The notes: a model not told the origin generated them from the sequence alone. Numbered from the stretch's first letter, positions 42,343 through 62,195 are shown. The stretch is 64,000 nucleotides of DNA from Ktedonobacterales bacterium (GCA_036557285.1 DATBHW010000073.1:551-64550); one strand, 5' to 3'. Translations and numbers: made by a program.

Positions 42343-42380
42343 GATCGGCTGCTCTCTGTCAAGCCATCAGGAGAGGCTGT

Positions 42381-43085: not shown

Positions 43086-43250
43086 GGTATGGCGCCCTTT
43101 CCTAGCAACACACTCCAATTCGTGTCAATTATAGCCGCTCAATCCAACTTCACGCAATTATCCTGGCCCATATCATCCTTGCAGACGAGGGGAGCAGCAG
43201 GCGGAAGCGCCCAGCCCCGGCATAGATCTATCGAATGGTTTGGATCAGCG

Positions 43251-44825: not shown

Positions 44826-45054
44826 AGTTCTAACCTCATCATCGGTACAGCGCGCAAACCTGCGCGAGACGCAGGAAATCGGCGCTGATCTTCCCTGGTT
44901 TTCCTTCCGTCGAACGTTTTCTGGCTATCGAAAGCTCCATTTATGCTCAAGTACTGATACGAATAACTGCCTCAAGAGTATCAGTGGGCGAGCGTGAACA
45001 GCTATGAGTACCAATGAAGAATACTGAAACATGCTGGAGAGCGAAGCACAAACG

Positions 45055-45096
45055 GGGCCAGTTGGCAAACGGACCGCTCCGTTTGCCAACTGGCCC
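45055..45096 (-). terminator. Strong hairpin downstream of the 4-TM protein gene
   Basis: 19-bp perfect stem GGGCCAGTTGGCAAACGGA/TCCGTTTGCCAACTGGCCC with a 4-nt loop, and a modest T-rich tail. Confidence 0.5.
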
Positions 45097-45124
45097 TGCT
45101 AACCTCTGAGGCGCAGCGAGTGCG

Positions 45125-45781: not shown

Positions 45782-45897
45782 GAAATTCACCTCCTTAAAC
45801 CAGAGCGTATGCAGGGTCAACACCGTTACACATACTAAGAGGGTGCATAACCCATGCCACCAGGGCTGATTAGTCGCCTGGTCCATAAAGAGGGCAA

Positions 45898-45951
45898 ATA
45901 AACTTAATATTACTATTGACTTTATTAAAGCAAAGTGCTATAAACTTAATA
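45898..45951 (+). promoter_or_regulatory. DUF2089 operon promoter flanked by a 12-bp direct repeat
   Basis: TTGACT-N17-TATAAA (45916-45944). ATAAACTTAATA occurs at 45898-45909 and 45940-45951, and the second copy overlaps the -10 box. Confidence 0.45.
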
Positions 45952-46001
45952 GTTAGACCTGCACCGCAGCGCGCGAAGGCAGAGAAAGGACAGGAGCGGA
46001 T

Positions 46002-46427
46002 ATGTACGACGTAAGCGGACGTTGCCCGGTTTGTGGGGGACAAATGGCGATTACCCGCCTGGAGTGTGGGACGTGCCACAGCGCCCTGGAGGGGCAGTTT
46101 ACCGTGAATGGTTCAGGCCGAGGCGCTGGCGAAGGCGACAGCTACTTTGGCCGACTCGAACGCCTGAGCCGCGACCAGCTTGAGTTTGTTGAAGTATTCC
46201 TGCGTTGTCGCGGGATTATCAAAAATGTTGAGGCGATTCTTGATATTTCGTATCCTACCGTCAAAGCGCGGCTAAACAATGTGATTGAGAGCCTGGGTTT
46301 CCAGGTGGAAGAAGAGATGCCTGACCCTGAGCGCCGCCGCGAGCGCCGCGAAATCTTGCAGGAACTGGCCCAGGGCAAAATCACCACCGAAGAGGCCCAC
46401 CGCCGTCTGGCGGCGGAAAACGAATAA
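46002..46427 (+). CDS. DUF2089-like Zn-ribbon/HTH protein
   Basis: CPVCGGQM...CGTCH zinc ribbon and LSRDQLEFVEVFLRCRGIIKNVEAILDISYPTVKARL HTH. SHOCT-like tail QGKITTEEAHRRL. Confidence 0.75.
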   Translation: MYDVSGRCPVCGGQMAITRLECGTCHSALEGQFTVNGSGRGAGEGDSYFGRLERLSRDQLEFVEVFLRCRGIIKNVEAILDISYPTVKARLNNVIESLGFQVEEEMPDPERRRERREILQELAQGKITTEEAHRRLAAENE

Positions 46428-46447
46428 CACGACAGAGGGAGGGGATT

Positions 46448-48136
46448 ATGAGCAGCGAACAAACCGTCTCTGGCGGATTCAACCGTATCGAAATCGGGCG
46501 GGCCGAAGGCGAGCTAGAAGTGCTGGGCTGGGATGAGCCAACTATCCGTATTGTAGGGCATGATGAGGAGGACAGCCCCTACGCAGGCACTGAAGGCGTC
46601 CTGCGGCTGGAGCGTCTGCATGACGATGTGACCATCAGCGCGCCGCGCAGTGTCAGCCTCTATATCCTCAGTGCCAAGGGCGACGTGGTGATCCGTGGCA
46701 TTGGGGGGAACGTGCGCCTGGACGCGGGGGCTGGCGATGTGCAGGTACAGGACGTGGGCAGCGTGCAACTGGGCGCCATCAGCGGCGATACGCAGCTCGA
46801 AGGCTGCCAGGGGGACGCGCGCCTGAACGCTATTTCCGGCGATCTGGTGGCGCGCAACCTGGGGAGCCTGGAGATTACGGGCGCGGTCAACGGCGATCTT
46901 CAGGTGAACGATGTCGTTGGCGAGGTGAACTTGAGGCATACTGTCAATGGGGACGCGCACTTTGCCCATGTCGGCCATGTCGCTGTTTCTAACATGCGTG
47001 GCGATTGCCGCGTCACCCAGGCGGGCAGTGTGGTGGTCAGCAACCTGGGCGGGGATTTGGACGTAGAAGAGGTAGAAGGTTTCTGCCATATCCAGAACAT
47101 GCACGGCGACGCGAAGCTGCGGCAGTGCGGCGGGGTGGCGACGTTGGATAACGTGGGCGGCGATCTGCAAGCAACGGACATGCGCGGCGGCATTGCTACC
47201 GGCCATGTCAGCGGGGATGTCCGTCTGGATACTCCGCTGCTCAAAGACGCCGCCTATACGGTTCACGCTTCGGGCGACATTTCGCTGCGCGTGCGTGGCT
47301 CCTTGCACGCTCGCTTTGTGGCGCAGACGCTTGGGGGGACGATCCATACACGCCTGCCGCTTACGGTGGAGCGCGGGCGGCGGCGGCATCTGGTGGGGGC
47401 TATCGGACGAGCCGAGGCTGTTGTGACTTTGCAGAGTGATGGCGGCGACATCACGATCACCGCCGCCGATTCTACCCAGGAGGACTTCATGACCGACGAG
47501 TATAACGACACATTTGGGGACAGGGAAGAGGCTGCTACAGGCGGCGAAATGCGCTTTGGGCGCGGCTTTGGGCTCCGTTGGGACAGAGGACCAGGCCGCT
47601 TTACCTTTGCGACGGGCTATCGTGACGACCCTGATGGCCCAGGCGATCCGCGCATCCGCCGCGAGCGTGGCCGCAAGGGCAAGTTTCCTTTTGAGTGGGA
47701 CGAAACCCAGCGCGAAGACTATGAGCGCCGCATCCGCGAGATGAGTGATCGCACCGCTCAGGCCGCGCGCAAGGCCGCCGAGCGCGCCACTGAATATGCC
47801 GAGCGCGCCGCCAAGCGCGCCCGCGAAACCGATTGGGAATCCGTTGGCCGCGATGTGCGCAGTGCTATCGAGCGCGCGATGGGCGAGATGGAACATCTGC
47901 TTGAGCAGTTCCGAGGTGGCCCAGGCGCTCCTCCTCCCCCGCGCCCACCGCACGCGCCGCCCCCACCGCCCCGCCCCGGAAGCCAGGCGCAGCGCGTGCC
48001 AATTGAGCAAGATGAGCAGGCGGCTCCGCCCAACAAGGACGAGCAGGACGCGCGGCGGCGCACGATTCTTGAACAACTGCGCAGCGGCGCTATCTCGATG
48101 GATGAGGCCGAGCGCCAGCTTGATGGCCTGCGCTAA
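46448..48136 (+). CDS. DUF4097-like beta-helix repeat protein with a charged/Pro-rich C-terminal extension
   Basis: Many GD(V/L)xV repeats, then an RE-rich coiled segment, PPPPRPPHAPPPPPRP and a SHOCT-like SGAISMDEAERQL tail. GAGGGAGGGG SD. Confidence 0.7.
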   Translation: MSSEQTVSGGFNRIEIGRAEGELEVLGWDEPTIRIVGHDEEDSPYAGTEGVLRLERLHDDVTISAPRSVSLYILSAKGDVVIRGIGGNVRLDAGAGDVQVQDVGSVQLGAISGDTQLEGCQGDARLNAISGDLVARNLGSLEITGAVNGDLQVNDVVGEVNLRHTVNGDAHFAHVGHVAVSNMRGDCRVTQAGSVVVSNLGGDLDVEEVEGFCHIQNMHGDAKLRQCGGVATLDNVGGDLQATDMRGGIATGHVSGDVRLDTPLLKDAAYTVHASGDISLRVRGSLHARFVAQTLGGTIHTRLPLTVERGRRRHLVGAIGRAEAVVTLQSDGGDITITAADSTQEDFMTDEYNDTFGDREEAATGGEMRFGRGFGLRWDRGPGRFTFATGYRDDPDGPGDPRIRRERGRKGKFPFEWDETQREDYERRIREMSDRTAQAARKAAERATEYAERAAKRARETDWESVGRDVRSAIERAMGEMEHLLEQFRGGPGAPPPPRPPHAPPPPPRPGSQAQRVPIEQDEQAAPPNKDEQDARRRTILEQLRSGAISMDEAERQLDGLR

Positions 48137-48238: not shown

Positions 48239-48556
48239 GGTTCTCCCAAATCTGAGGTGTTGGCAAGCGAGGCGTGTTACTGGTAGCGCCGCCTCCCTTC
48301 GGGAAGGGCCGCTTGCCTCCCCCTGCGGGGAGCGGCCCTTGCGGGAACCAGGTTCCCGCATTCTCCCTCGCTGCGCTCGGTCGCGGGCCGCTGCTGTTGC
48401 CCCGTCCTCTCGCTCCCGGTGGTCGCTCGCGCGTCCCTCCTGGCGGCCAGCGTTGGCCTGCTGGTCCGCTGGCCTGGAGGGCGAACGCTCGCCAGGGCGC
48501 AGCGTTGGCCGCCTGGAAGGCGGCGCTACAAGTGGCCCCCGATAATTGGTGGAACC
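48239..48556. repeat. Family-A full MITE-like element (longest copy) with an 8-bp TSD
   Basis: Termini GGTTCTCCCAAATCTGAGG...CCCCCGATAATTGGTGGAACC. GCCCTTAT occurs at 48231-48238 and again at 48557-48564. Confidence 0.9.
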
Positions 48557-48646
48557 GCCCTTATGGGCGAGCTTGCGCAAAAGCCCTCAACCATGTTACA
48601 GTATGTAAGGTGAAGTGTTTTTTACACGAGGGGGAGGGAACATTAG

Positions 48647-48946
48647 ATGATCCGCCATGAACTCATCTTGCGCCTACGTAGTGATACCAATCGGGAGGTG
48701 ATTGATCGCACGCTGACCGATGTGAAAGAACTCCTGGCAGGCATTCCTGGCGTCATCGAGACGCGCTCTGGCGTCAATAACGCTCCGTCCTATCGGCACG
48801 CGCTGCTCGTTGTCTACGTGGAGAACGAGCGTGCGCTTCAGCGATTCAGCCGCCACCCGCTTCACGCGCGCGCGGTGCGCCTCCTCAGCCGTTTGACTGA
48901 ATCATATACCATTGCCAGCCTGCCCGTCGGCGTCCAGCCGAAATAA
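48647..48946 (+). CDS. Dabb (stress-responsive alpha/beta-barrel) domain protein
   Basis: MIRHELILRLR...GIPGVIETRSGVN...ALQRFSRHPLH pattern. Confidence 0.75.
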   Translation: MIRHELILRLRSDTNREVIDRTLTDVKELLAGIPGVIETRSGVNNAPSYRHALLVVYVENERALQRFSRHPLHARAVRLLSRLTESYTIASLPVGVQPK

Positions 48947-49070
48947 CCCGCTCTCTCTACTACCAATCAGCCATCTTCTGGCCGGAACATCGGATTGATG
49001 CTCCGGCTTTTTGCTGCCATCAGACGCCTGGCGGCGCCAGCCCTGCCCCGATAGGCGCAGCGTATGTACT

Positions 49071-49195
49071 TGCAGCGCCGCTCACTTGCGGCGCCGCCTG
49101 GAAGGTGGCTCATCGTCGGGCTACCGGAACGTTCGCGCTCCAGGGCAACCGCTCGCCCAGCCGCAGCGGCTAGCCGCCTGGAAGGCGGCGCTACA
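49071..49195. repeat. Family-A core copy (variant head TGCAGCGCCGC)
   Basis: Ends GCCGCCTGGAAGGCGGCGCTACA. Lies just downstream of the PPTase gene. Confidence 0.75.
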
Positions 49196-49259
49196 AGTAG
49201 GCAGCCGCCTGTCCGCCGCCGGGATGGCGGCGGTACCGGTACAGACGCCCGTAGGCGGT

Positions 49260-50021
49260 TTAACCGCCAGCCTGCTGCCAACATGTGAGAGAAGCAGGCT
49301 GCCCCTGCACAGCCAGCGCCGCAACGTAGCCGGGACCAGGAGAGAGCGCGTGGAGCGACCAATCTGAGCTATCCTGGCCCTCTTCTCTGGTCGCCAGAAG
49401 TGCCGCTGGCTCCCCAGGAGCGAGCGAAACATCGAACAGGTTCAGGTCGAGCGAAAGACCCAGACCCCTCGCTTTGACATAGGCTTCTTTGCGGGTCCAG
49501 CAATTCAGGAAGGCTTCTTGCTTGTCCTGCGCAGCAACCGCCTGGAGCGCGTACACCTCATGGGGGGAGAAGAACCGCGTGGCGATTTGCTCATAGTCTG
49601 CGCCAGCGGGGCTGATCTGTTCGAGATCAATGCCGATAGCTCCGCAGCGTGTGATCGCGTAGAGGGCCAGGTCGTGGGAGTGCGCCAGATTGAAAAGCAG
49701 CGGCTCACTCCCTACTTCATCGGCGAGGGCTGGCTTGCCATATTCGTTGTAGGAGAAGCGCAGTGTCTGCGGCTCCCTGCTCAGATAGCGGCCCAGGATG
49801 CTTCTGAGCATGCCCCGCGCCGCGATAAAGCGGGCGCGGTCCCGTGAGAAGCGAAACTGCGACGCTCGCTGCCGTTCATCGGCAGCGAGCGTCTGCTCCA
49901 GCGCCTGCATATGTGACGCCGACAGGTTCAGCCTGGCGCGCCAGATATGCGCCTCGTCGGATGCTAAGATGGGTCGCTCTGGCGCCGCGCTCCAGAGGGA
50001 CTCCTGCGCGCTCAGCGTCAT
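49260..50021 (-). CDS. Sfp-type 4'-phosphopantetheinyl transferase
   Basis: GIDLEQI and WTRKEAYVKARG motifs. Start ATG 50021 overlaps the NRPS stop (ATGA). Confidence 0.85.
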   Translation of the reverse strand: MTLSAQESLWSAAPERPILASDEAHIWRARLNLSASHMQALEQTLAADERQRASQFRFSRDRARFIAARGMLRSILGRYLSREPQTLRFSYNEYGKPALADEVGSEPLLFNLAHSHDLALYAITRCGAIGIDLEQISPAGADYEQIATRFFSPHEVYALQAVAAQDKQEAFLNCWTRKEAYVKARGLGLSLDLNLFDVSLAPGEPAALLATREEGQDSSDWSLHALSPGPGYVAALAVQGQPASLTCWQQAGG

Positions 50022-53000
50022 ACCCGCTCTAGCTCGGCCTCCTGAACTTTTGCCAGGCAGGCGCTGAACTCTTCGGCCAGGCTGGAAAGGTGTTTGGTGA
50101 GGCAGCTCAGATGATCGCCAGGAATGACGTGCAGTTCCGTTTCTTGCGCGGCATCGGCAAGCCCGCGCCATTCGCTGGAGTCAGCGACTTCCTCTTTTGC
50201 CCAGAAGAACGTGATCTTGCCAGGATAAGCGCCAGGCGTATAAGCGGCTAACATCCAGGCAGTCATTGACCAGCGATCCCGGCAAAGCGTCGCCAGGGTT
50301 GGGAAAATCGCGCGGAGGCTGGGAAACGCCGCGCTCCCCTTGCCACGCCTGCGCCCGGCCTTGTTCATCTCCCGCCGGTACGGCGCAAACCGCAGGTACT
50401 TATAGAGGTGCCGTACCCACAGGAACGAATAGAACTGGCGATATTCTCCGATCCGCAGCGCCTTGCCAGGCAGGCTGATCGCGCGGCGCGTCAATTTGTC
50501 GGAGGCCGGAGCAGGCGGTGTGGGGTCAATCAAAACCAGCAAATCAACCTGCTGCCCTTGCCCTTGAAGCTGCCGGGCTATTTCATAGGCCAGCAGACCG
50601 CCGATGCAAAAGCCGCCCAGCAGATACGGACCTTCCGGCTGAATGGCCTGGATTGACCTTACATGCGTGGCCGCCATCGCCTCGAATGTGGGCGGAGCCT
50701 GCCGGGTATCAAACTTATACGGCTCGACGGTGTAGAAAGGCTGTTCTGGCCCCAGGTGATCAGCCAGGGGGAAGCAGTAGTAAGCGCCGCCGATGCGATC
50801 CTCGTGCATATAGAAGATCGGGCGTCTGGAACCGCCGGATTGAACCGCCACCACCGGCGCTTCGGCGATGGTAATGTCTTGTGACAGAATCTCGGCAAGC
50901 TGTTCAATCGTTGGCCCCGCAAAGAAGGTCGCCAGCGGAATCTTTTTGCCAAAGACCTGCTCGATGCCATTGACCAGGCGGGCTGCAAGGAGTGAATGCC
51001 CGCCTAAGAAGAAGAAGTTATCCCTGATCCCGATGGGCCGCGCCTCCAACAGTTCCTCCCAGAGATGGATCAGTTGATAGTGGACCATAGACATGGGCGG
51101 AACATAGTGTTCTTCCGCCGCGCTGTCCAGTTCAGGCGCGGGCAAGGCGCGTCGGTCTATTTTGCCGTTGGGCGTCTCAGGGAAGGCATCCAGCGTGGTG
51201 AAGGCCGCAGGTATCATGTAATCCGGCAGGTATTCACGCAAAAAGCTGCGCAGTTCATTGGCCTTGATTTCTTGCTGCTGGTGCGCGACGACGTAGGCGA
51301 CCAGGCGTTTGTCGCCCGGTGTATCCTCGCGGGCCAGCACCACCGCCTGCCGCACCGCCGGGTGCTGGACCAGTGTCGTCTCGATTTCGCCCAGTTCGAT
51401 GCGGAAGCCGCGAATCTTCACCTGAAAATCAACGCGCCCCAAGTGATCGATCTGCCCATCGGCGCGATAGCGGGCCAGATCGCCGGTCCTGTAGAGGCGC
51501 GCGTCTGGCCTGGCGCTAAAGGGATGGGGAATGAATCGCTCGGCGGTTAACTCCGGGCGATTGAGATAGCCGCGAGCCAGGCCGTCGCCCCCAATATAGA
51601 GTTCGCCTGGCACGCCGATGGGCGTTGGATTCAGGTGGGCGTCAAGCACGTAGATTTCTGTGTTGGCAATCGGACGCCCAATCGAGAGATCGTCTGCCGA
51701 CTGAACCAGAGAAAGCGTAGACCAGATGGTCGTTTCCGTCGGGCCGTACATGTTCCAGACGGAACCCGCTCTCGGCAGAAGCTGCGCGGCCAGTTCCGGG
51801 GGGAAAGCTTCGCCGCCGCAGAGAATCTTCAAGTACGGGCTGCCCTGCCACCCGGCGGCCAGCAGCAGCCGCCAGGTAACGGGTGTCGCCTGCATCACCG
51901 TAGCGCCGGAACGGGCCATGAGTTCGGCCAGCGCCGCGCCGTTGACAGTCGTTTCCCGGCTGGCGATGATGACCCGCGCGCCGACGATCAGCGGCAGGAA
52001 GAGTTCAAGACCGGCAATATCGAATGAGAGCGTGGTGATAGCCAGCAGCCGATCATTCGCCGTCAGCCCTGGCTGCTGGCGCATCGAGAGCAGGAAGTTG
52101 ACGACGGCGCGATGGGGAATCTGAACGCCCTTTGGCTTCCCCGTCGAGCCAGAGGTATAAATCACATAGGCCAGGTTCTCGGGGTTGGCCTGGGAGACCG
52201 GATTGAGGCTGCTCTGCTGTTTGAGCAGCGCCGCGTCGGCATCCAGGCGAACAATTTTGGCTGCGCCAGCGGGCAGTTGTGTCGTCAGGCGCTGCTGTGT
52301 GACCAGCGCCATGACCTGGGCATCCTCCAGCATGAAGGCCAGCCGTTCCTGGGGAAAGGCCGGGTCCAGTGGAATGTAGGTTCCGCCCGCCTTGAGGATG
52401 CCCAGCAGGCCCACGACCATCTCCAAAGAGCGTTCCATATACAGGCCCACGCGCACATCCGGGCCGACTCCCAGCTTCTGGAGGTAATGAGCAAGCTGAT
52501 TTGCGCGCTGGTTCAGTGCTTGATAGGTCAGTTGTTCCTTCTCATACACCAGGGCTACCCCTTCTGGTGTTCGCTGCGCCTGCGCCTCAAAAAGCTGGTG
52601 AACACACTCGTTCTCAGGATAGGCTGCCTGGGTGGCATTCCATGCTACCAGCAGTTGGCTGCGCTCCGCTTCTGTCAGCAGCGGCAGCCGAGAAAGGGGC
52701 TGGTCGGGGTTGGCTGCGATGTCTTGGAGCAAGGTCTGGAAATGCCCGGCCATCCGCTCGATGGTGGCGGCCTCAAAGAGATCGATATTGTACTCCAGCG
52801 ATCCGACCAGGCTGCCCGCCTCTTCCCAGATGTAGAGGGTCAGATCGAACTTGGACATGCTGATCTCTACGTCTAGGGAAGAGAGCGACAACCCGGCAGC
52901 CTCGACAGCGGTTGGCGCGGCATTCTGGTCGGCAATGACCACCTGGAAGAGCGGCGAATGGCTCAGGCTGCGTTCGGGGTGCAGCGCCTCCACCAACTTC

Positions 53001-54118
53001 TCGAAGGGCAGTTCATGATGGGCATACGCCTCCAGCGCCATTTTGCGTACCCGCTTGAGCAGTTCCCGAAAGCCGGGGTCGCCCGAAAGATCGGTGCGCA
53101 GCACCAGCATCGTGACCAGATACCCGATCAACTCCTGAACCTCGCTGCGGTTGCGGTTGGCGATAGGCGAACCCACCACGATGTCTTCCTGCCCAGTATA
53201 GCGGGAAAGCAGCACGTTGAAAGCCGCCAGCAAAGTCATGAAGATCGTCGCGCCTTCCTGCTGACTCAACGTCTGAATCTGCTCGGTGAGCGCCCTGGAG
53301 AGTCGAAAATTGTGGACGGCCCCACGAAAGGTCTGGATGGCCGGGCGTGGATGATCGGTAGGCAAATCCAGCACTGCGGGAGCGTCGGCCAACTGCTGTT
53401 TCCAGTAGGTAAGCTGGTCTTCCATCCGCTCCCCTTGCAGCCACTCGCGGCGCCAGAGGGCATAATCAGCGTATTGGATGGGCAGTTCAGGCAGCGGTGA
53501 TGGCTGTCCGGCGGTGAAGGCGCTGTAGAGGGTGGTCAGTTCTCGGACCAGAATACCTACCGACCACCCATCAGAGATGATGTGGTGCATGAGCAGAAGC
53601 AGGATATGTTCCTGCTCCGTCAGCCGGAACAGCATGGTCCGCAGCAGCGGCCCCTGGGCAAGATCGAATGGGCGCGTTATCTCCTCATTGATGGACTGTA
53701 TGGCTCGCGGCCAGCGCGCGCGATCTTCCAGGTCGCGCAGGTCTACCACCGAAAAAGGTAACTGGAGGGAGGAGGCGATCATCTGCACCGGGCGACCCTC
53801 GATGGCGGGGAACGTGGTACGCAAGGACTCGTGGCGTTTCACGATTTCTTGCAGGCTTTGCTCAAGCGCGGCGAGGTCGAGCGGGCCACTCAGGCGCAGC
53901 GCGTAGGGCAGATTATACGCCGCGCTGCCTGGAGTCAGTTGGTCAATGAACCAGAGCGGCTCCTGGGCAAAGGAGAGCGGTGGGTTAGACATGACCTGGC
54001 TGCGGCGCGGGATCGCCGTCGGGGTGGTCGTCACTTTTTGCTGCTCGATGAGCCGCTTCAGCAGGATTTCGCGTTTCTCCGGGGAAAGGTCTGCAATGCG
54101 TTTTGACAGGTCACTCAT
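50018..54118 (-). CDS. NRPS module 3: C-A-T-TE
   Basis: C domain MHHIISDGWS. A domain LAYVIYTSGSTGKPKG, NMYGPTE, GELYIGG and PNGKIDRRALP. T domain FFFLGGHSLL. TE domain GPYLLGGFCIGG...IPGDH. Confidence 0.95.
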   Translation of the reverse strand: MSDLSKRIADLSPEKREILLKRLIEQQKVTTTPTAIPRRSQVMSNPPLSFAQEPLWFIDQLTPGSAAYNLPYALRLSGPLDLAALEQSLQEIVKRHESLRTTFPAIEGRPVQMIASSLQLPFSVVDLRDLEDRARWPRAIQSINEEITRPFDLAQGPLLRTMLFRLTEQEHILLLLMHHIISDGWSVGILVRELTTLYSAFTAGQPSPLPELPIQYADYALWRREWLQGERMEDQLTYWKQQLADAPAVLDLPTDHPRPAIQTFRGAVHNFRLSRALTEQIQTLSQQEGATIFMTLLAAFNVLLSRYTGQEDIVVGSPIANRNRSEVQELIGYLVTMLVLRTDLSGDPGFRELLKRVRKMALEAYAHHELPFEKLVEALHPERSLSHSPLFQVVIADQNAAPTAVEAAGLSLSSLDVEISMSKFDLTLYIWEEAGSLVGSLEYNIDLFEAATIERMAGHFQTLLQDIAANPDQPLSRLPLLTEAERSQLLVAWNATQAAYPENECVHQLFEAQAQRTPEGVALVYEKEQLTYQALNQRANQLAHYLQKLGVGPDVRVGLYMERSLEMVVGLLGILKAGGTYIPLDPAFPQERLAFMLEDAQVMALVTQQRLTTQLPAGAAKIVRLDADAALLKQQSSLNPVSQANPENLAYVIYTSGSTGKPKGVQIPHRAVVNFLLSMRQQPGLTANDRLLAITTLSFDIAGLELFLPLIVGARVIIASRETTVNGAALAELMARSGATVMQATPVTWRLLLAAGWQGSPYLKILCGGEAFPPELAAQLLPRAGSVWNMYGPTETTIWSTLSLVQSADDLSIGRPIANTEIYVLDAHLNPTPIGVPGELYIGGDGLARGYLNRPELTAERFIPHPFSARPDARLYRTGDLARYRADGQIDHLGRVDFQVKIRGFRIELGEIETTLVQHPAVRQAVVLAREDTPGDKRLVAYVVAHQQQEIKANELRSFLREYLPDYMIPAAFTTLDAFPETPNGKIDRRALPAPELDSAAEEHYVPPMSMVHYQLIHLWEELLEARPIGIRDNFFFLGGHSLLAARLVNGIEQVFGKKIPLATFFAGPTIEQLAEILSQDITIAEAPVVAVQSGGSRRPIFYMHEDRIGGAYYCFPLADHLGPEQPFYTVEPYKFDTRQAPPTFEAMAATHVRSIQAIQPEGPYLLGGFCIGGLLAYEIARQLQGQGQQVDLLVLIDPTPPAPASDKLTRRAISLPGKALRIGEYRQFYSFLWVRHLYKYLRFAPYRREMNKAGRRRGKGSAAFPSLRAIFPTLATLCRDRWSMTAWMLAAYTPGAYPGKITFFWAKEEVADSSEWRGLADAAQETELHVIPGDHLSCLTKHLSSLAEEFSACLAKVQEAELERV

Positions 54119-54124
54119 CTCACG

Positions 54125-57100
54125 TCATCTCTCCGTTCGCTTGCTCTCAATTACCAGGATGTCTTGCGCTTCATGATCGGAAAGCTGCTCAAGCTCTGCG
54201 AGCAACTGGGCCGTTACTCCATCTTCGATCTGGTCGGCCTGACACTGCACAATTCTTATAGCCAGGCTGGCTATCGTTGGCGCCTCAAAGAGACTGGACA
54301 ACGGAAGCTCTATATTGAAGATGTCATGCGCCCGCGAGAGGGCGCGCACCGCCAGGAGCGAATGCCCCCCCAACTCAAAGAAGTTCTCGTTGATGCCCAC
54401 CTGCTTGAGTCCCAGCAGTTCTGTCCAGATCGCGGCCAGTTGTTCCTCGGTAGGGGTGCGCGGCGCTGCAAGAGCCGCTTCTGGCTGTTCTCTGTCGCCC
54501 TCCGGGGCAGGCAGCGCCCGCCGGTTCAGTTTGCCGTTGGGGGTCAGCGGCACATATTCTAACATAACAAATGCCGATGGGATCATATGCTCTGGCAGGT
54601 GTTCCTTCAAGAAGCCGCGCAGGGCGCTGCTGGTGGGGGACTGGCCCGCAGCAGGCACAAGATACGCCACCAGGCGCTTCTCGCCAGGGGTGTCTTCGCG
54701 GGCCACGACCACTGCCTCGCGGACCTGGGGATGCTGGCTCAGGATACTCTCGATCTCGCCTGGTTCGATACGGAAGCCCCGAATCTTCACCTGGAAGTCG
54801 GCGCGCCCGATGTACTCCAGATTGCCATCGGGATGATAGCGGGCGAGATCGCCGGTCTTGTAGAGGCGCGCGCCTGGCTCCTGACTGAACGGGTTGGGGA
54901 TAAACCGCTCGGCGGTCAGTTCCGGGCGGTTCAGATAGCCACGCGCCAATCCGTCGCCGCCGATATAGAGTTCGCCAGGCACACCGATAGGGACAGGCTG
55001 AAGGTGGGCGTCAAGCGCGTAAACCTGCAAGTTGGCGTTAGGCCGACCAATGAGTATCGTGGAAACCTCCTGATCTTCGCCCTCCCTCACCAGATCATAG
55101 GTGGTTGCGCCGATGGTTGCCTCGGTTGGGCCATAGCAGTTGCTCCAGCGAACGCGCTTAGGGACGCGCTCCTGCCAGAGCGTCAGACGCTGTAGCAGGG
55201 CTTGCTCGCCCCCCGTGATGACCCAGCGCAGGCTCTCCGGCAGCGGTGTGTTTGCTTTGGCGAGTTCATAGGTCCAGGTATGCCAGTAGGCTGTCGGGAG
55301 GTTCAGAATGCTCAGCCGCTCATGCTCTATGAGCCGGAACAATTCCTCGAAGGTCAGGGCAACCTGTACAGGCCGCAGCACCAGCGCGGCCCCCGCCAGC
55401 CAGCATGGGAAGATTTCCTCTGCTGCCGTATCAAAGCTGAGCGAAGCAAATTGCAAGATGCGATCAGCAGGCCGGACATCGAAGTGTTTGATAAAGGCCA
55501 GGTTATGGTTGACGAGCGCGCGATGGGCAATCTGAACGCCCTTCGGTTTCCCCGTAGAGCCAGAGGTGTAGATGACATAGGCCAGGTTGTCGGCCTGGAC
55601 CGCGCTGACGGGGTTCGTCGTGGGTTCTTGAGCGATTTCTGCCCACTGCCCATCCAGGCAAATGACGCGAGCGTTCTGCGCGGGAAGCTGCGCCAGCAGA
55701 TGCTGCTGCGTGAGTAGAACGGCTGCCTGGCTGTCCTCCAGCATGAAGGCCAGGCGCTCTGTGGGATAGCTGGGGTCCAGCGGCACATACGCGCCGCCCG
55801 CCTTGAAAATACCGAGGAGTCCCACCGCCATTTCCAGCGAACGCTCCACACAGAGGCCCACGAGTGTCTCTGGCCCCACCCTTTGCTTTTGGAGATGATG
55901 GGCCAGTTGGTTGGCGCGCGCGTTCAGTTCCCCATAGGTAAGCTGGCGCCCCTCGCTGACAAGAGCTACTGCGTCTGGCGCGCGCGCCACCTGCTGCTCG
56001 AAGAGCCAGTGGACACACTGGTCCTGGGGGTAATCGGCTTGGGTAGCATTCCACTCTACCAGCATCTGCTCTCGCTCGGCCTCTGGTAAGAGCAAAAGCT
56101 GGGAGATAGGTTGGTCGGGATCAACCGCGATGCCTTCCAGCAGCGTCTGGAAATGCCCAGCCATCCGCTCGATGGTCGCCGCCTCGAACAGATCGGTGTT
56201 GTAATCGAACGTGCCGCTGAGATCCTCTGGCCGCTCCTTTAAGGCGAGGCTCAGGTCAAACCCGGCGTCGAGGCCAGCCCCGATATGCAGCAGGGCGGCA
56301 GCCCACCCGGAAGGCAGGGCAGGCGGCGGCGATTCAAGCGTAAACATCGTCTGGAAGAAGGGGTTCTGCCGTGGCGCGCGCTCCGGGTGGAGTTCTTTGA
56401 CCAGATGCTCGAAGGGCATGTCCTCGTGATCCAGCGTGGAGAGCGTGGTCTCGCGTACCCGCTGAAGCAGCGCCCGGAAGCCTGGATCGCCAGAGAGGTC
56501 CAGACGCAGGGCCAGGGTATTGATGAAGACGCCCAACAGCCCACGGACTTCTTCCTGCTTGCGGCCAGCGGAAGGGGTACCAATAATGAGGTCCTCCTGG
56601 CCGGAACAGCGCGCCAACAGGACAGCGTAGGCGGCCAGCAGAGTCATGAAAAGGGTAGCGCCCCCCTGCTGGCTGAGGGCTTTGAGGGCAGCGGTTGTCT
56701 GTGCAGGCAGGGTGAACGAATGCGCGCACATCTGGCCTTTGGAGGCGACGGGACGCGGGTGATCGCCAGGCAGCGCAAGATCGGTTGGCGCTCCGGCCAG
56801 ATGATGCTTCCAGAAATCCAGATGCTCTGCCAATGCCCTTTCGTCGAGCGTTTCGCGCTGCCAGCAGGCGTAATCGGCATATTGGATGGGCAGCTCTGGC
56901 AAGAGCGAGGGCTGGCCGGTCGCATACGCCTGGTAGAGAGCATATAGCTCTGGCAGGAGTATCTGCGAGACAGAGAAGCCATCGGAGATGATGTGATGGA
57001 GGGTTAAGAACAGCCGATGCTCCTCATCGTCCAGGCAAACGAGGCGGGCGCGCAGCGGGGGCGCCTGCGAGAGATCAAAGGGCGCGGTGGTATTCTCTGC

Positions 57101-57517
57101 TGCCAGTCGCAGCGCCTCAGCTTCGCGTTCAGTCCTGGGCAGGCGGCGCAGGTCCGTGAAGGGCAGCCGGAAGATGGAGGGCGGATGAATTTGTTGGACA
57201 GGCTGCCCCTCTATCAGTGGAAAACTGGTGCGCCAAACTTCGTGACGCCGGATGAGTTCGTTGAAGCTCTGTTCAAGAGCCGCTCGATCGAGCGGCCCAG
57301 GCAGAGAGATACTCACACTCAGGTGATAGACAGGAAGATGCGGGGTGAGTCGGCTCAGCAGCCAGAATTGCTGCTGCGCAAAGGACAGCGGCACAGGCCC
57401 ATCGTGGGCGCGTCGAGTGATTGTTTCAGCATCCACGCTTGTCGGAAACAGCTTGCCCCGCAAGAGCTTTTCCAGCAGGGCGCGTTTGGCCTCAGAGAGA
57501 TTGCTTGTGTCTGACAT
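54125..57517 (-). CDS. NRPS module 2: C-A-T
   Basis: C domain LHHIISDGFS. A domain LAYVIYTSGSTGKPKG, NCYGPTE and PNGKLNRRALP. T domain FFELGGHSLL. Confidence 0.95.
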   Translation of the reverse strand: MSDTSNLSEAKRALLEKLLRGKLFPTSVDAETITRRAHDGPVPLSFAQQQFWLLSRLTPHLPVYHLSVSISLPGPLDRAALEQSFNELIRRHEVWRTSFPLIEGQPVQQIHPPSIFRLPFTDLRRLPRTEREAEALRLAAENTTAPFDLSQAPPLRARLVCLDDEEHRLFLTLHHIISDGFSVSQILLPELYALYQAYATGQPSLLPELPIQYADYACWQRETLDERALAEHLDFWKHHLAGAPTDLALPGDHPRPVASKGQMCAHSFTLPAQTTAALKALSQQGGATLFMTLLAAYAVLLARCSGQEDLIIGTPSAGRKQEEVRGLLGVFINTLALRLDLSGDPGFRALLQRVRETTLSTLDHEDMPFEHLVKELHPERAPRQNPFFQTMFTLESPPPALPSGWAAALLHIGAGLDAGFDLSLALKERPEDLSGTFDYNTDLFEAATIERMAGHFQTLLEGIAVDPDQPISQLLLLPEAEREQMLVEWNATQADYPQDQCVHWLFEQQVARAPDAVALVSEGRQLTYGELNARANQLAHHLQKQRVGPETLVGLCVERSLEMAVGLLGIFKAGGAYVPLDPSYPTERLAFMLEDSQAAVLLTQQHLLAQLPAQNARVICLDGQWAEIAQEPTTNPVSAVQADNLAYVIYTSGSTGKPKGVQIAHRALVNHNLAFIKHFDVRPADRILQFASLSFDTAAEEIFPCWLAGAALVLRPVQVALTFEELFRLIEHERLSILNLPTAYWHTWTYELAKANTPLPESLRWVITGGEQALLQRLTLWQERVPKRVRWSNCYGPTEATIGATTYDLVREGEDQEVSTILIGRPNANLQVYALDAHLQPVPIGVPGELYIGGDGLARGYLNRPELTAERFIPNPFSQEPGARLYKTGDLARYHPDGNLEYIGRADFQVKIRGFRIEPGEIESILSQHPQVREAVVVAREDTPGEKRLVAYLVPAAGQSPTSSALRGFLKEHLPEHMIPSAFVMLEYVPLTPNGKLNRRALPAPEGDREQPEAALAAPRTPTEEQLAAIWTELLGLKQVGINENFFELGGHSLLAVRALSRAHDIFNIELPLSSLFEAPTIASLAIRIVQCQADQIEDGVTAQLLAELEQLSDHEAQDILVIESKRTER

Positions 57518-57641
57518 GATGCTCTATCACTCCTAGTGGAGAGCGTCTTTCGCTGTCAATGGCGGCTTCCAAATCAGCCCCTGATGTGCTCAGCTTAAGC
57601 GAGAGACGATTCCACTATTAAAACGGGTTCGCAGTGCCCTT

Positions 57642-60600
57642 TTAACTCAATAACTGCTGCAATTCTTCGTCGCTCAGCGTCTCTAGTTTGGTCAAAATCA
57701 CTTCTTCAATGGTGGCGGCCAACTCGCGGACTGTGGGCGCGTCGAAAAGGGTGCGCAAGGAAAGCTTTACCTTGAAGGTTTCGTTCATCCGCGCGATAGC
57801 CTGAGTACCCAACAAAGAATTGACCCCGATCATAAAGAAGTTCTCGTCGAGGCCAACCTGCTCCACTTTCAGGAAGCCAGCCAGGATCGCCGCCACTTCA
57901 ATTTCCATAGGCGTGCTGGGCAGTGCGCCGATCTCATCACGCACGAGATGATCGGTATCTGGCGCGGGCAGGGCGCGGCGATCCACTTTGCCGTTGGGGG
58001 TCAGCGGCATCTGCTCTACCATTACAAAGGCCGATGGTATCATGTAATCCGGCAAATACTCCTTCAGAAAGCTGCGCAGCCCCGCGTGAGCAGGCGGGTC
58101 TCCTTCGCCTGCTACGAAATAGGCCACCAGGCGCTTATCGCCTGGGGTATCTTCGCGGGCCACCACGACAGCCGCGCGTATTGCCGGATGCTGCCGGAGC
58201 AGCGTCTCGACTTCGCCCAGTTCGATGCGGAAGCCGCGCACCTTCACCTGATGATCCAAGCGTCCTAGAAAATCAATTTCCCCTGTAGGCAAATAGCGTG
58301 CCAGATCGCCTGTTCTGTAGAGCCGCGCCCCTGGATCGGCGCTAAACGGGTCGGGAACAAATCGCTCAGCCGTCAATTCCGGGCGATTGAGATACCCGCG
58401 CGCCAGACCGGCCCCGCCAATATAGAGTTCGCCAGAGACGCCAATGGGGACAGGCTGAAGGGAAGCATCGAGCAGATAGACCTGAGTGTTGGCAATCGGG
58501 ACGCCGATGGTGATCAGATTGGTATCGGGCGTGATCTGGCGGATGGTGGACCAGATGGTCGTCTCCGTTGGGCCGTAGAGGTTCCACAAAGACGCGCACT
58601 TGTTCAGCAATTGCTGAGCCAGGTCACGCGGCAGGGCTTCGCCCCCACAGAGCATCTTCAGGCGCGGGTCTCCCGACCAGCCCGCCTCCAACAGCAGCCG
58701 CCAGGTAACGGGTGTCGCCTGCATTACGGTTGTTCCGGTACGCGCCATCGTCTCCGCCAGCACCGTCCCGCTCACCGCTGTTTCGCGGCTGGCGATAACC
58801 ACCCGCGCGCCGACCAGCAGCGGCAGGAAAAGTTCAAGGGCAGCAATATCGAAGGATAACGTAGTGACGGCCAGCCAGGTATCCTCCGCCGTCAGTCCGG
58901 GCCGCTCGCGCATGGACAACAAAAAGTTCACCACCGTGCGCTGGAGTATCTGGACTCCTTTGGGCCGCCCTGTGGACCCCGAAGTGTAGATGACATAGAC
59001 CAGATTCTCGGCAGTGGACAGGCTGGCAGGGTTCGTCTGATCTTGCTCGGCCAGCAGCCGCGCGTCGGCGTCAAGGCGCACGACCTGTGCATTCTGTGTG
59101 GGCAGCAAGGACGCCAGCGTGGCTTGCGTGACGAGGACCGGAACCTGGGCATCTGTCAGCATGAAGGCCAGCCGCTCAGCCGGATATGTGGGGTCCAACG
59201 GCACATACGCGCCGCCCGCCTTGAGAATGCCCAGCAGGCCAACCTCCATCTCCAGCGAACGCTCCAGACACAGGCCCACCAGTACGTCTGGACCCACGCC
59301 AAGCTGGCGCAGGTAGTGAGCCAGTTGATTGGCACGCGCATTGAGTTCTTGATAGGTAAATGCAGCGCCCTCATAGATCACGGCTGTGGCCTGCGGTGTG
59401 CGCGCCGCCTGCTCCTCGAAAAGCTGATGAATACAGACATTGGTGGGGAACGCTCGTTGGGTGGCGTTCCACTCCTCCAGCAGTTTTTGCTCCGCTGGCG
59501 TCAGGATAGGTAAAGCAGAAAGGGGCCGATTGGGGTCAGCGACGATGCTCTCCAGCAGCGTCTGCCAGTGTCCGACCATGCGCTCGATGGTTGTCCTATC
59601 GAACAGGTCCGAGTTGTACTCGAAGCGGCCAATAAGCCCCTCTGGTCGGTCATCGAGTTCGAGGGACAGATCGAACTTGGACGTTCCGACGGTCACATCC
59701 ATCTGCGTCAGCGTCCACCCGGAGGGCAGCGCCGTCAGCGGAGGCTCCAGGGTCAGCAACACCTGGAAGAGCGGATTCTGAGCGAGGTTTCGCTCCAGTT
59801 GCAGTTCCTTGATGAGATACTCGAAAGGTACCTCTTCATAGGTAATCGCCGAGGTCGTCACTTCGCGCACGCGCATCAGCAGTTCGCGGAAGGTCGGGGC
59901 ACCGGATAAGTTGGTGCGCAGCACCAGGGTATTGAGGAAAAAGCCGATCATGCGCTCGACTTCGGGGCGCTTGCGTCCTCCGGTGGCTGTGCCGATGACC
60001 ATATCATCCTGCGCCGTATAGCGGTAAAGCAGCGTGTTGAATGCCGCCGCCAACAGGATATAGAAGGTCACGCCCTCCTGGCGGCTCAGGGCTTTGAGCG
60101 CGTCAGTCAAGGGCTTTCCAATCGCAAAGGGGCGCATGGACCCGGCGTAGGTCTGTGCTGGCGGGCGCGGGCGATCAAAAGGCAATTCTAGGGTGGCGGG
60201 CGCGCCTTCAAGCTGTTTTTTCCAATAGACAAGCTGGTCGTCGAACTTTTCCTTTGGGAGCCATTCACGCTGCCAGGCGGCGTAATCGGTATATTCGATC
60301 TCTAATGGGGGCAGCGGAGAAGGCTGGCCTGCTAAAAAAGCCTCGTAAAGCGCGCGCAGTTCTGGAAGAAACACCTGATAAATGGCAACCCCATCAAAAA
60401 TGATATGGTGCATCGTCAGGAACAGGCGATGCTCCTCATCCGCCAGTTGTATAAAGAGCGCGCGCAGCAGCGGCCCCTGGGCAAGATCGAAGAGAATGCG
60501 CGCGTCTTCTGTTGCCAGCCGCAGCGCCTCGGCCTCTCGTTCAGCTTCAGGCAGGCGCCGCAGGTCCACCAGGGGCAGCCTGACGGTTGAGGGAGGATGC

Positions 60601-60929
60601 ACCATCTGGACCGGCTGCCCATCCACCAGCGGAAAGCTGGTGCGCCAGGCTTCGTGGCGCTTGATGAATTCATTAAAACTCTGCTCCAGCGTTGCTACAT
60701 CCAGCGGGCCAGGCAGGTGAATGGTGACGCACTCGTTGTAGACAGGAATATCAGGCATCATTTGGGCGAGCAGCCACAATTGCTGCTGTCCAAAAGACAG
60801 CGGCGCAAAGCCTGTCTGAGTCCGCCGGGAGATAGCAGGGATACCTGTGGTAGCCTGCGGGAGATTGCCCCGCATCAGTTTATCCAGCAGGGCGCGTTTA
60901 GCCTCTGAGAGATTGCTTGTATCTGACAT
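57642..60929 (-). CDS. NRPS module 1: C(starter)-A-T
   Basis: Start trimmed to ATG 60929 (GGAGAAGGAA SD). C domain MHHIIFDGVA. A domain LVYVIYTSGSTGRPKG, NLYGPTE and PNGKVDRRALP. T domain with an atypical FFMIGVNSLL core. Confidence 0.95.
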   Translation of the reverse strand: MSDTSNLSEAKRALLDKLMRGNLPQATTGIPAISRRTQTGFAPLSFGQQQLWLLAQMMPDIPVYNECVTIHLPGPLDVATLEQSFNEFIKRHEAWRTSFPLVDGQPVQMVHPPSTVRLPLVDLRRLPEAEREAEALRLATEDARILFDLAQGPLLRALFIQLADEEHRLFLTMHHIIFDGVAIYQVFLPELRALYEAFLAGQPSPLPPLEIEYTDYAAWQREWLPKEKFDDQLVYWKKQLEGAPATLELPFDRPRPPAQTYAGSMRPFAIGKPLTDALKALSRQEGVTFYILLAAAFNTLLYRYTAQDDMVIGTATGGRKRPEVERMIGFFLNTLVLRTNLSGAPTFRELLMRVREVTTSAITYEEVPFEYLIKELQLERNLAQNPLFQVLLTLEPPLTALPSGWTLTQMDVTVGTSKFDLSLELDDRPEGLIGRFEYNSDLFDRTTIERMVGHWQTLLESIVADPNRPLSALPILTPAEQKLLEEWNATQRAFPTNVCIHQLFEEQAARTPQATAVIYEGAAFTYQELNARANQLAHYLRQLGVGPDVLVGLCLERSLEMEVGLLGILKAGGAYVPLDPTYPAERLAFMLTDAQVPVLVTQATLASLLPTQNAQVVRLDADARLLAEQDQTNPASLSTAENLVYVIYTSGSTGRPKGVQILQRTVVNFLLSMRERPGLTAEDTWLAVTTLSFDIAALELFLPLLVGARVVIASRETAVSGTVLAETMARTGTTVMQATPVTWRLLLEAGWSGDPRLKMLCGGEALPRDLAQQLLNKCASLWNLYGPTETTIWSTIRQITPDTNLITIGVPIANTQVYLLDASLQPVPIGVSGELYIGGAGLARGYLNRPELTAERFVPDPFSADPGARLYRTGDLARYLPTGEIDFLGRLDHQVKVRGFRIELGEVETLLRQHPAIRAAVVVAREDTPGDKRLVAYFVAGEGDPPAHAGLRSFLKEYLPDYMIPSAFVMVEQMPLTPNGKVDRRALPAPDTDHLVRDEIGALPSTPMEIEVAAILAGFLKVEQVGLDENFFMIGVNSLLGTQAIARMNETFKVKLSLRTLFDAPTVRELAATIEEVILTKLETLSDEELQQLLS

Positions 60930-61143
60930 ATTTTTGTTATTTCCTTCTCCTACTTCCTTCTCCTCATGAGAAGGGAAATGGCGCCGGGGATGGTAGAAAG
61001 GACTTGCCTTTGTCCTGAAGAAATACCATAGAGCCTCTCTCTTGAGAAGAGAGAGAAGATGGGTTGAGATATGGTTATGACTATGCCCAAGAGGGGTATG
61101 AATTGTGATACTGCGTCCCGCTCGTCGAGGCATGAGCAGACTC

Positions 61144-61384
61144 GGTTCCACCAACTATCGGAGGCGTCACCTGTAGCGCCGCCATCTTGGCGGCCACCGC
61201 TGCGCCAGGGCGAGCGTTCGCCCTCCAGGCCACCGGACCAGTGGGCCAACGTTGAGCCGCCTGGAGGGACGCGCGAGCGACCAACGGGAGCGAGAGTGCC
61301 GAGGCCCAGCCGAGGCAAGCGGCCCTTCCCGAAGGGATGGCGGCGCTACGAGTACCATGCCTCGCTTGCCAGATCTCATTTTTT
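61144..61384. repeat. Family-A full MITE-like element, inverted orientation, with an 8/9 TSD
   Basis: 11-bp perfect TIR GGTTCCACCAA...TTGGTGGAACC. Flanked by AGCAGACTC (61135-61143) and AGCGGACTC (61385-61393). Confidence 0.85.
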
Positions 61385-61517
61385 GGTGGAACCAGCGGAC
61401 TCTGCGTGGTTACAATTCTGAAGAGGACGTGTTATCCTTAGCATAAGGTCAAGAGTTTCTTCGGGTATGTGCAGCGTCTTCGTAGCGTGTACCTGTCAGA
61501 TAAAGAGATGATGTGGC

Positions 61518-62189
61518 ATGAGGGTGCTCATTGTAGAAGATGAACAACGCCTGGTCCGTTTGATGAAGCGGGTGTTGGAAGAAGAACGCTACGTGGTGGA
61601 TGTGGCCTATGACGGTGAGGAGGGCCTCGAAAAAGCTGGTTCGGGCGCTTATGACCTGATCGTGCTGGACATTATGCTGCCCTATCGGGATGGGGTCGCG
61701 GTCTGCCGCTGGCTGCGCAGGCATCAGATTGCGACGCCCATCCTCATGCTGACGGCGCGCGATCAGCTAGAGGATAAAGTCAACGGGCTGGATGCGGGAG
61801 CTGACGACTATCTGACCAAGCCGTTTGCTTTTGAGGAACTGCTGGCGCGGCTCCGCGCCCTGGCCCGCCGCGCGCCAGCGCCGCCGCAGGAGCCGGTGTT
61901 GCATGTGGGCAATCTGACGCTGGATGTACAGCGGCATGAGGTGCAGCGAGACGGCCAGCCGATTCCTTTGACGCTGCGCGAGTTTGCCTTGCTGGAATAT
62001 TTGATGCGCCATCCGGGCCAGGCGCTCTCGCGGACGCAGATTACCAACCATGTCTGGCCGGATGAGAGCGAGGCAGTCAGCAATATTGTGGATATTTATA
62101 TTCACTATCTGCGCGAAAAAGTGGATCGTGGCTTTGAGCCAGCCCTGATACGAACGGTGCGAGGCATTGGCTATAGTATGCGAGGATAA
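61518..62189 (+). CDS. OmpR-family response regulator
   Basis: MRVLIVEDE...DLIVLDIMLPYRDG receiver and a winged-helix C-terminus (RTVRGIGYSM). Confidence 0.9.
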   Translation: MRVLIVEDEQRLVRLMKRVLEEERYVVDVAYDGEEGLEKAGSGAYDLIVLDIMLPYRDGVAVCRWLRRHQIATPILMLTARDQLEDKVNGLDAGADDYLTKPFAFEELLARLRALARRAPAPPQEPVLHVGNLTLDVQRHEVQRDGQPIPLTLREFALLEYLMRHPGQALSRTQITNHVWPDESEAVSNIVDIYIHYLREKVDRGFEPALIRTVRGIGYSMRG

Positions 62190-62195
62190 TAGGGT

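Follow-up and report, generated by a model that had tools for sequence, protein, structure and literature searches.

The 64-kb stretch of Ktedonobacterales bacterium DNA analyzed here (the window, whose numbering is used throughout) carries a block of four tightly packed minus-strand genes (49260-60929, 11.7 kb) that probably encodes an intact, uncharacterised trimodular nonribosomal peptide synthetase (NRPS) together with its own 4'-phosphopantetheinyl transferase (PPTase); the predicted product has a Gly-Arg(-like)-Gly core that would be released by a thioesterase with a cysteine nucleophile. The source is a metagenome-assembled genome (MAG) of a soil member of the Ktedonobacterales (Chloroflexota), a taxon full of orphan NRPS clusters. 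Ktedonobacteria are known for many NRPS clusters that resemble MIBiG entries only to a very small degree, and their condensation domains are mostly of the LCL and DCL types (PMC6497799). The cluster described here is a fairly ordinary orphan NRPS, and its quirks are a loader-less start with an intact elongation condensation domain, a terminal cysteine thioesterase of the AB3403 type, whose family includes stand-alone members that bear a helix, and a putative docking code with two classes.

The block had been described in an earlier note on this DNA as C-A-T / C-A-T / C-A-T-TE (C, condensation; A, adenylation; T, carrier; TE, thioesterase domain) followed by a translationally coupled Sfp-type PPTase. 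Open reading frame (ORF) calling, translation and Pfam searches bear out this architecture, and identical gene calls were made by the Joint Genome Institute (JGI) on a matching 175.7-kb contig. NCBI lists the same proteins under HEY7350646-49, with a Ktedonobacterales MAG as their source (M1 is HEY7350649.1). The three synthetase genes are named here M1, M2 and M3 (Table 1); M1 and M2 are separated by 124 bp, M2 and M3 by 6 bp, and the start codon of the PPTase gene overlaps the stop codon of M3 as ATGA at 50018-50021, as verified in the sequence. With 253 aa the PPTase is close to the length typical of the Sfp type (~230-250 aa); its Pfam matches (PF01648, PF22624) agree with the two-lobed ACPS fold of that type, and its GxD and WxxKEA signatures read GIDLE and WTRKEAYVK.

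Pfam domains across the block have E-values from 1e-10 to 1e-123, all far above threshold, and in M1 they cover residues 40-484 (C), 504-981 (A) and 1012-1074 (T). The three C domains (PF00668, E 1e-103 to 1e-123) keep the HHxxxDG motif, as the earlier note had said, in the forms HHIIFDG (C1), HHIISDG (C2) and HHIISDG (C3). The A domains (PF00501 and PF13193) have specificity codes that start with D and end with K (the Asp235/Lys517 pair), and the core motifs A3, A5, A7, A8 and A10 are visible in all the translations. Carrier domains (PF00550) are present in M1, M2 and M3; the core of T1 is the atypical GVNSL that had been noticed before, and that of both T2 and T3 is GGHSL.

Motif anchoring and pairwise alignment yielded the same specificity codes, and both reproduce exactly the codes previously read by eye: DILQLGLIWK for A1, DTENIGCIGK for A2 and DILQLGMIWK for A3, the last within M3. 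As a control, the same alignment columns give DVESIGVIAK for the first A domain of the anabaenopeptin synthetase ApnA (ApnA A1), consistent with its published codes. In a 2025 compilation of 2051 characterised A domains, DILQLGLIWK corresponds to Gly(8), the commonest Gly signature, found in 28 characterised domains including that of DhbF, and DILQLGMIWK to the Gly(10) signature of the BaeJ, Ta-1 and Gly-MOX modules (PMC12283262). Because the ten-residue codes of A1 and A3 are identical to these published signatures, the prediction of Gly for modules 1 and 3, already made in the earlier note, is firm. The Gly domains of DhbF (bacillibactin), BaeJ and Ta-1 belong to unrelated pathway contexts. 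The matches come from the tables of this one compilation; searched as text strings in the literature, DILQLGLIWK and DTENIG were not found. Among the whole-module matches in the PDB, DhbF (5u89) is one of the best; the top match, module 2 of LgrA, was set aside as uninformative on specificity, since its Gly code, DIANLCIIYK, differs.

For module 2 a cationic or polar side chain had been suggested, and the comparisons support a cationic one, placing the code in the Arg/Lys/Orn group. The code DTENIGCIGK shares seven of its ten positions with the Arg code DAENIGAITK, six with the Arg code DTEDVGCVDK and six with ApnA A1, against five with codes for Orn and Lys. The M2 orthologue P0038 (70% identical) has the code DTENIGTITK, which matches DAENIGAITK at eight of ten positions. 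The solved structure nearest to the A2 pocket subdomain is ApnA A1 (Planktothrix, 4D4G; E 7.6e-31), with which A2 shares Asp235, Glu239, Ile299, Gly301, Ile330, Lys517 and the LPTAYWH motif; A2 differs from it in having Thr236, Asn278, Cys322 and Gly331, and ApnA comes from another phylum and another pathway. Published codes of ApnA A1 follow DVE[DS]IG..[EA]K, and the domain activates Arg and Tyr, in some strains Lys (PMC5311044). From the code matches and the similarity to the ApnA A1 pocket, a Gly-Arg(-like)-Gly peptide is therefore predicted, with moderate confidence in Arg (or another basic amino acid) as the central residue. The Orn codes of the D-x-E-N form raised a siderophore reading with hydroxy-ornithine at module 2, which is not favoured because the Arg codes fit better; no N-hydroxylase (K_oxygenase) appears among the Pfam hits, no transporter gene adjoins the block, and the FAD_binding_3 gene at 41167-42342 lies outside it.

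Between motifs A4 and A5, A1 and A3 are ~80% identical, whereas A2 is only 20-26% identical to either; outside this region all three A domains are 55-90% identical. Such a pattern points to an exchange of the specificity subdomain.

The feature of M3 that the earlier note had missed is the nucleophile of its TE, a cysteine in the elbow GGFCIGG; the triad Asp lies in VLIDPT and the His in IPGDH. The best PDB match to this domain is AB3403 (4zxh), both by sequence (E 2e-20) and by Foldseek with the AlphaFold2 (AF2) model (E 1.9e-13). Its elbow GGWCFGG aligns residue for residue with GGFCIGG, its VMIDTR with VLIDPT and its LPGDH with IPGDH, and the TE of M3 resembles it further in having the triad Asp at the canonical position I and the His near the C-terminus. 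AB3403 is the only structurally characterised NRPS thioesterase with a Cys nucleophile besides those of ObiF, which makes a beta-lactone, and SulM, which makes a beta-lactam; unlike these two, it keeps the triad Asp after beta-6, at position I (PMC11298585). A beta-lactone or beta-lactam route of the ObiF or SulM kind was rejected for M3, whose Asp is at position I and not II and whose predicted C-terminal Gly has no beta-nucleophile.

AB3403 (ABBFA_003403 of Acinetobacter baumannii, 4ZXH/4ZXI) is a C-A-T-TE protein with glycine in the A-domain pocket of its crystal structure, and no product is known for it (PMC10510592). It shares with M3 the domain order, the Cys nucleophile, the position of the Asp and Gly in the A domain, seen in the pocket of one and in the code of the other. 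Nonetheless it is distant: the TEs are ~25% identical, the C domains match only at E 1e-34, and the TE of M3 differs in its long, basic helical lid. AB3403 consists moreover of one module, which receives its substrate from a stand-alone A domain and a carrier protein encoded in the same operon (PMC10510592), in contrast to the three modules found here, for which no loader is encoded in the window or its flank.

The cysteine is almost universal in the family. It is present in all 120 closest TE homologues and is invariant in the family alignment; among the best 150 representatives of an exhaustive search, 119 have Cys, 7 have Ser and 24 were unresolved by pattern. The family comprises 466 representatives at E <= 1e-30, in fused (A-T-TE, C-A-T-TE) and stand-alone forms. 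Many of them stand alone and bear a putative docking helix, and no product is known for any of the 466; the role of AB3403-type cysteine thioesterases is a question of wider interest that the cluster could help to answer. Stand-alone Cys-thioesterases of ~330 aa (proteins P0129-P0244) carry the same type of helix as M1 and M2; in loci L033-L035 (gene 10001-10999 in L033) the gene adjoins glycosyltransferases, a polysaccharide deacetylase, an A-T protein with a cytochrome P450, and a Formyl_trans_N-C-A-T-TE fusion.

The assembly line begins with a C domain, which the earlier note had taken to imply N-acylation or another unusual priming step. This does not agree with the relationships of C1. 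Its best PDB matches are elongation domains (Txo2, 2e-94; Txo1, 4e-93; DhbF C2, 9e-86; TycC6, 1e-70), whereas the starter domains of lipopeptide synthetases, RzmA-Cs (7C1H, 1.3e-16) and CDA-C1 (4JN3, 1.3e-12), match weakly; by this ranking C1 falls outside the clade of starter C (Cs) domains. It shares with those two domains its position at the start of an assembly line, and differs from them in bearing a protein-docking helix. At the protein level C1 shares 56% identity with C2, 50% with C3 and 58% with the C domain of the M2 orthologue P0038. Thus C1 is, as judged from its homology, an intact elongation-type domain and not a starter or lipoinitiation domain.

Relatives of C1 were searched in a collection of 5.8 billion proteins. 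The closest, from Ktedonobacteraceae, are 65-71% identical, helix included, and those with genomic context follow stand-alone A-T loaders ending in ...K[LI]E.MSDEE..LL. In locus L036 an A-T loader and a P450 precede a helix-C-A(Gly)-T-TE protein; in L037 an A-MT-T loader precedes a helix-C-A(Gly)...T-TE protein; and in L042, L046, L050 and L051 an A-T loader is followed by modules that start with a C domain. Because the relatives sit behind A-T loaders, domains of the C1 type are predicted to act in elongation, with a donor supplied by a loader encoded as a separate protein. That the first C domain might be inactive or vestigial was examined with 31 columns conserved at 95% or more across 99 related C domains: C1 deviates at none of them, C2 at three, and the family median is 0.5. 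Since no near-invariant column deviates, C1 is not vestigial.

The N-terminal helices of the synthetase proteins had been proposed as docking elements, and the homologues support this view; their sequences read as given in the earlier note. M1 and M2 share the helix consensus M.D...LSEAKRALL[DE]KL.RG, and among the 120 closest TE homologues at least 63 stand alone, measure ~330 aa and open with MPDT.ELSEAKRALLEKYLRGDLPQ, the thioesterase following immediately. In the AF2 model of M1, residues 9-20 form a helix with a low predicted local distance difference test (pLDDT) score, a disordered linker extends to residue 41, and a confidently modelled C domain follows; in the model, therefore, the N-terminus of M1 behaves as a tethered docking helix would be expected to. 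Matching tails were found on adjacent genes in other loci, and from this adjacency we infer two docking classes. In class 1, the LSEAKRALLEK helix comes after a tail of the form ...K[LI]E.[ML]SDEE..LL; this arrangement is seen from M1 to M2 and also in L031, L036, L037, L042 and L050, where the A-T loaders encoded before class-1 helices terminate in a tail of the M1 type. In class 2, the tail is longer, with LLAELE...D.E.Q..L and an extension, and MSDL..RIA.LSPEKRE.LL.RL comes next; this is seen from M2 to M3 and recurs in L038 and L050. The pairings support the colinear order M1, M2, M3, which is likewise inferred from gene adjacency. Proteins with only C and T domains, without an A domain and with a docking helix and a tail, were also observed in related clusters (L050 13442-15403, with the variant motif HHLLGDG, and protein P0268).

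The near identity of M1 and M2 at the DNA level, previously read as module duplication, holds for the helix patch only. Their first 66 nt are identical at 59 positions (89%); the upstream non-coding DNA is not alignable, and past the patch C1 and C2 are only 56% identical. Close similarity is limited to this patch and to the A-pocket regions of M1 and M3; duplication was overstated, and shuffling of cassettes describes the picture better.

The orphan status assigned to the cluster before is supported: each of the four proteins is the sole member of its own cluster at 90% identity, and a scan of contigs from species-representative genomes with M2 as query gave relatives 36-55% identical, in other architectures, with no orthologous cluster. 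Individual parts, in contrast, have orthologues. That of M3 (P0365, 61% identical over the full length) is found in loci L038-L040 with a 58%-identical PPTase, the 4-bp overlap being kept in L038 and L040, and L050 carries a 63%-identical relative of M3. The flank of L038 is also shared: the window at 38734-48136 is orthologous to L038 14882-24104 (sugar transferase, MshEN, response regulator, two unknown proteins, DUF2089, DUF4097) in an orientation inverted relative to the NRPS, with identities of 95.6% for the response regulator, 93.6% for DUF2089, 79% for a 524/534-aa protein, 63% for the sugar transferase and 57% for MshEN. Because these flanking genes are orthologous, the NRPS is, by synteny, an island at a conserved chromosomal site. 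Only module 3 and the PPTase are common to the two NRPS islands; upstream of them L038 has an A-T-C-A-T protein (codes DPRHLALLAK-like and DAWT-type) and a hexapeptide-repeat transferase. Two kinds of L038 gene are absent from the window, those for hexapeptide-repeat transferases and that for a 413-aa T-TE protein; instead, the window has the FAD oxygenase at 41167-42342 and a Dabb gene at 48647-48946.

Other loci recombine the same elements. The M2 orthologue P0038 is encoded in L031, just downstream of an A-T protein (1104-3053) that retains MSEVSNLS and the C-A linker and has lost the C domain; before it comes a ...A(Gly)-T protein. From its sequence, the C-less protein seems to be a loader that arose naturally from an elongation module. 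In L050 the order is A-T, C-A(Ser-like)-T, C-T, C-A(Gly)-T-TE, PPTase. More generally, the uncharacterised clusters of L036, L037, L038-L040, L042, L046 and L050 share the form [A-T loader]-[C-A-T]n-[C-A(Gly)-T-TE(Cys)]-[PPTase] in single-module proteins with the two docking classes. They begin, unlike the block, with an A-T loader; their internal codes are Ser-like, DPRHLALLAK and DAWT-type, and in some of them the modules are accompanied by a P450, a hexapeptide-repeat transferase or a C-T didomain protein. As far as gene order and homology can tell, these loci show single-module cassettes with compatible ends that have been exchanged, shortened or joined, the terminal module and the PPTase being the conserved part. 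A second question of wider interest for which the cluster could serve is how the short helix-and-tail code, which appears to let Ktedonobacteria shuffle such cassettes, specifies the choice of partner.

A start without a loader is found once more in L045 (9983-21400, metagenomic), which encodes C-A(Gly)-T, C-A(DMKNFGIANK)-T, C-A(DALWLGGTFK, Val-like)-T-TE(Cys) and a PPTase, with no NRPS domain or loader in the 10 kb upstream; its termini differ from those of the block, having ...SREAHR tails. From L045 and the block it follows that a C-A(Gly)-T start occurs at least twice.

In the assembly line that we propose, the PPTase would convert the three carrier domains to the holo form, A1 would load Gly, A2 a basic amino acid (Arg being the best guess, with Lys or Orn possible) and A3 Gly. 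The proteins would align as M1, M2, M3, through the M1 tail and the M2 helix (class 1) and through the M2 tail and the M3 helix (class 2), so that C2 and C3 could form two peptide bonds. The tripeptidyl thioester would then pass to the Cys of the TE and be released by hydrolysis, cyclisation or oligomerisation. As C1 has a class-1 helix and no partner gene nearby, it would therefore either accept a fourth, N-terminal residue from an A-T loader encoded elsewhere and acting in trans, or stay idle while Gly starts the chain. The practical value of the system lies in its compactness: with 11.7 kb, three single-module proteins and its own PPTase, heterologous expression should be easy.

We give these two forms of initiation about equal weight, and regard each of them as possible rather than probable. 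The first, which refines the proposed assembly line, would make the product X-Gly-Arg(-like)-Gly with the help of a stand-alone A-T loader, or another carrier-bound donor, that ends in a class-1 tail. The intact C1, the retained class-1 helix and the fact that the closest relatives of C1 are all found behind loaders with this tail speak for it, and the sister loci L038 and L050 begin with an A-T loader. Nonetheless, no loader gene is present in the 64-kb window or in ~3.5 kb past its right edge, and in the inspected relatives with a loader (L031, L036-L038, L042, L046, L050 and L051) its gene is part of the cluster, either immediately upstream or separated by a few genes. If C1 is idle, M1 would be a loading module, the product would be Gly-Arg(-like)-Gly, and the C domain with its helix would be the baggage of a C-A-T cassette insertion. 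That no donor for C1 is encoded nearby agrees with this, as does the sister locus L038: it shares only M3 and the PPTase, and identities of 79-96% in the flanks, against 58-61% for M3 and the PPTase, fit a replacement of cassettes. L031 shows the opposite event, the deletion of a C domain. An idle C1 is harder to reconcile with a domain that has all its core motifs and deviates at none of the 31 near-invariant columns, or with a helix patch 89% identical in DNA to that of M2; moreover, the C-A(Gly)-T start of the unrelated trimodular L045 suggests that the arrangement is not accidental.

Lipoinitiation, by which C1 would take an acyl-CoA or an acyl-acyl carrier protein (ACP) from primary metabolism and N-acylate Gly to give an acyl-tripeptide, is unlikely. 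C1 stands first in the cluster, as does the C domain of L045 with no visible loader, and C domains of an elongation-like kind, such as those in AB3403 and EntF, can take non-peptidyl donors delivered by stand-alone carriers (PMC10510592); but C1 is remote from RzmA-Cs and CDA-C1 (1e-16 and 1e-12, against 1e-70 to 1e-94 for elongation domains), no acyl ligase or ACP is encoded nearby, and the docking helix suggests a protein partner rather than a CoA substrate. It is rather improbable that the block is a non-functional relic of recombination with no product. The missing loader, the atypical T1 core, the uniqueness of each protein at 90% identity and a locus prone to recombination would fit such a relic, whereas 11.7 kb of uninterrupted reading frames with all the catalytic motifs, the conserved translational coupling of the PPTase and the absence of decay in C1 would not be expected of it. 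Another variant, which we consider highly improbable, concerns M1 itself. Its helix matches class-1 tails, and the only class-1 tail in the cluster is its own; because only M1 has both elements, its molecules could dock to one another head to tail, C1 joining the Gly-S-T1 of two M1 proteins to build a variable oligo-glycine N-terminus before M2, and the Cys-TE would then release the chain without hydrolysis, for example by side-chain lactamisation or oligomerisation. If true, M1 would be a self-docking NRPS module in iterative use.

Several points weigh against the intact assembly line that we favour. The loader common to most relatives is not in the block, which could make it a non-productive product of recombination, and T1 has its unusual core. 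The substrate specificities rest on code prediction, and the A2 code, despite its Glu239, has no exact match among characterised codes, the best being 7/10. The docking classes are putative and were drawn from gene adjacency. The genes are presumed to be expressed; a scan of 48500-61700 for promoters and terminators performed no better than on shuffled sequence.

Table 1. Coordinates of the genes, domains and putative docking elements of the NRPS block (window numbering)
Feature	Position	Strand	Description
Gene M1	57642-60929	-	1095 aa; docking helix, C1, A1 (Gly), T1, short C-terminal docking tail
Gene M2	54125-57517	-	1130 aa; class-1 helix, C2, A2 (Arg-like), T2, class-2 docking tail
Gene M3	50018-54118	-	1366 aa; class-2 helix, C3, A3 (Gly), T3, TE
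Sfp-type 4'-phosphopantetheinyl transferase	49260-50021	-	253 aa; Pfam ACPS (PF01648) and AASDHPPT_N (PF22624)
M1 N-terminal helix	60861-60929	-	MSDTSNLSEAKRALLDKLMRGNL; putative class-1 docking element
C1 condensation domain	59478-60812	-	elongation (LCL-like) type; Pfam E 5e-106; HHIIFDG at 60390-60410
A1 adenylation domain	57987-59420	-	code DILQLGLIWK (predicted Gly)
T1 carrier domain	57708-57896	-	Pfam PP-binding E 1.7e-14; GVNSL core at 57813-57827
M1 C-terminal tail	57645-57707	-	...LTKLETLSDEELQQLLS; putative class-1 docking tail
A2 adenylation domain	54530-56002	-	code DTENIGCIGK (predicted basic amino acid, best guess Arg)
M2 C-terminal tail	54128-54256	-	...LLAELEQLSDHEAQDILVIESKRTER; putative class-2 docking tail
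Type I thioesterase domain	50021-50860	-	Cys nucleophile; AF2 pLDDT 89.9
TE triad	Cys1171 50606-50608; Asp1198 50525-50527; His1336 50111-50113	-	positions verified

The surroundings of the block were scanned against Pfam with all window ORFs of at least 200 aa and the small neighbouring ones, and with a six-frame motif scan. In agreement with the earlier note, no acyl ligase, free carrier protein, MbtH protein, tailoring enzyme or exporter was found in or adjoining the block; the motif scan gave neither an MbtH signature nor an extra carrier site. No A-T protein or other NRPS-related gene is present in the window or in the ~3.5 kb that the JGI contig adds beyond its right edge, where only a hydrolase and a glycosyltransferase are encoded, and within the block no protein has the form of an initiation module (A-T without C, or with a starter C), since all three begin with an elongation-type C domain. 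The neighbours on the upstream side of M1 are a divergent two-component pair (61518-63641); on the downstream side, the PPTase gene is followed by those for the Dabb protein, DUF4097, DUF2089, two unknown proteins, the response regulator, the FAD oxygenase, the MshEN protein and the sugar transferase.

Farther away, two adjacent genes for transporters of the major facilitator superfamily (29187-31795, plus strand) lie ~18 kb from the NRPS, too distant to be assigned to the block. Genes of the methionine cycle occur at 3530-6135 and 12355-13581 (both on the minus strand) and encode an S-adenosylmethionine synthetase, an adenosylhomocysteinase and an IF-2B-family protein resembling methylthioribose-1-phosphate isomerase, with no apparent link to the NRPS. 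The window also contains two IS605-family genes of the OrfB/TnpB-like type, at 16502-17581 (minus strand) and 24187-25281 (plus strand), the former bearing a Cas12f1-like TNB domain.

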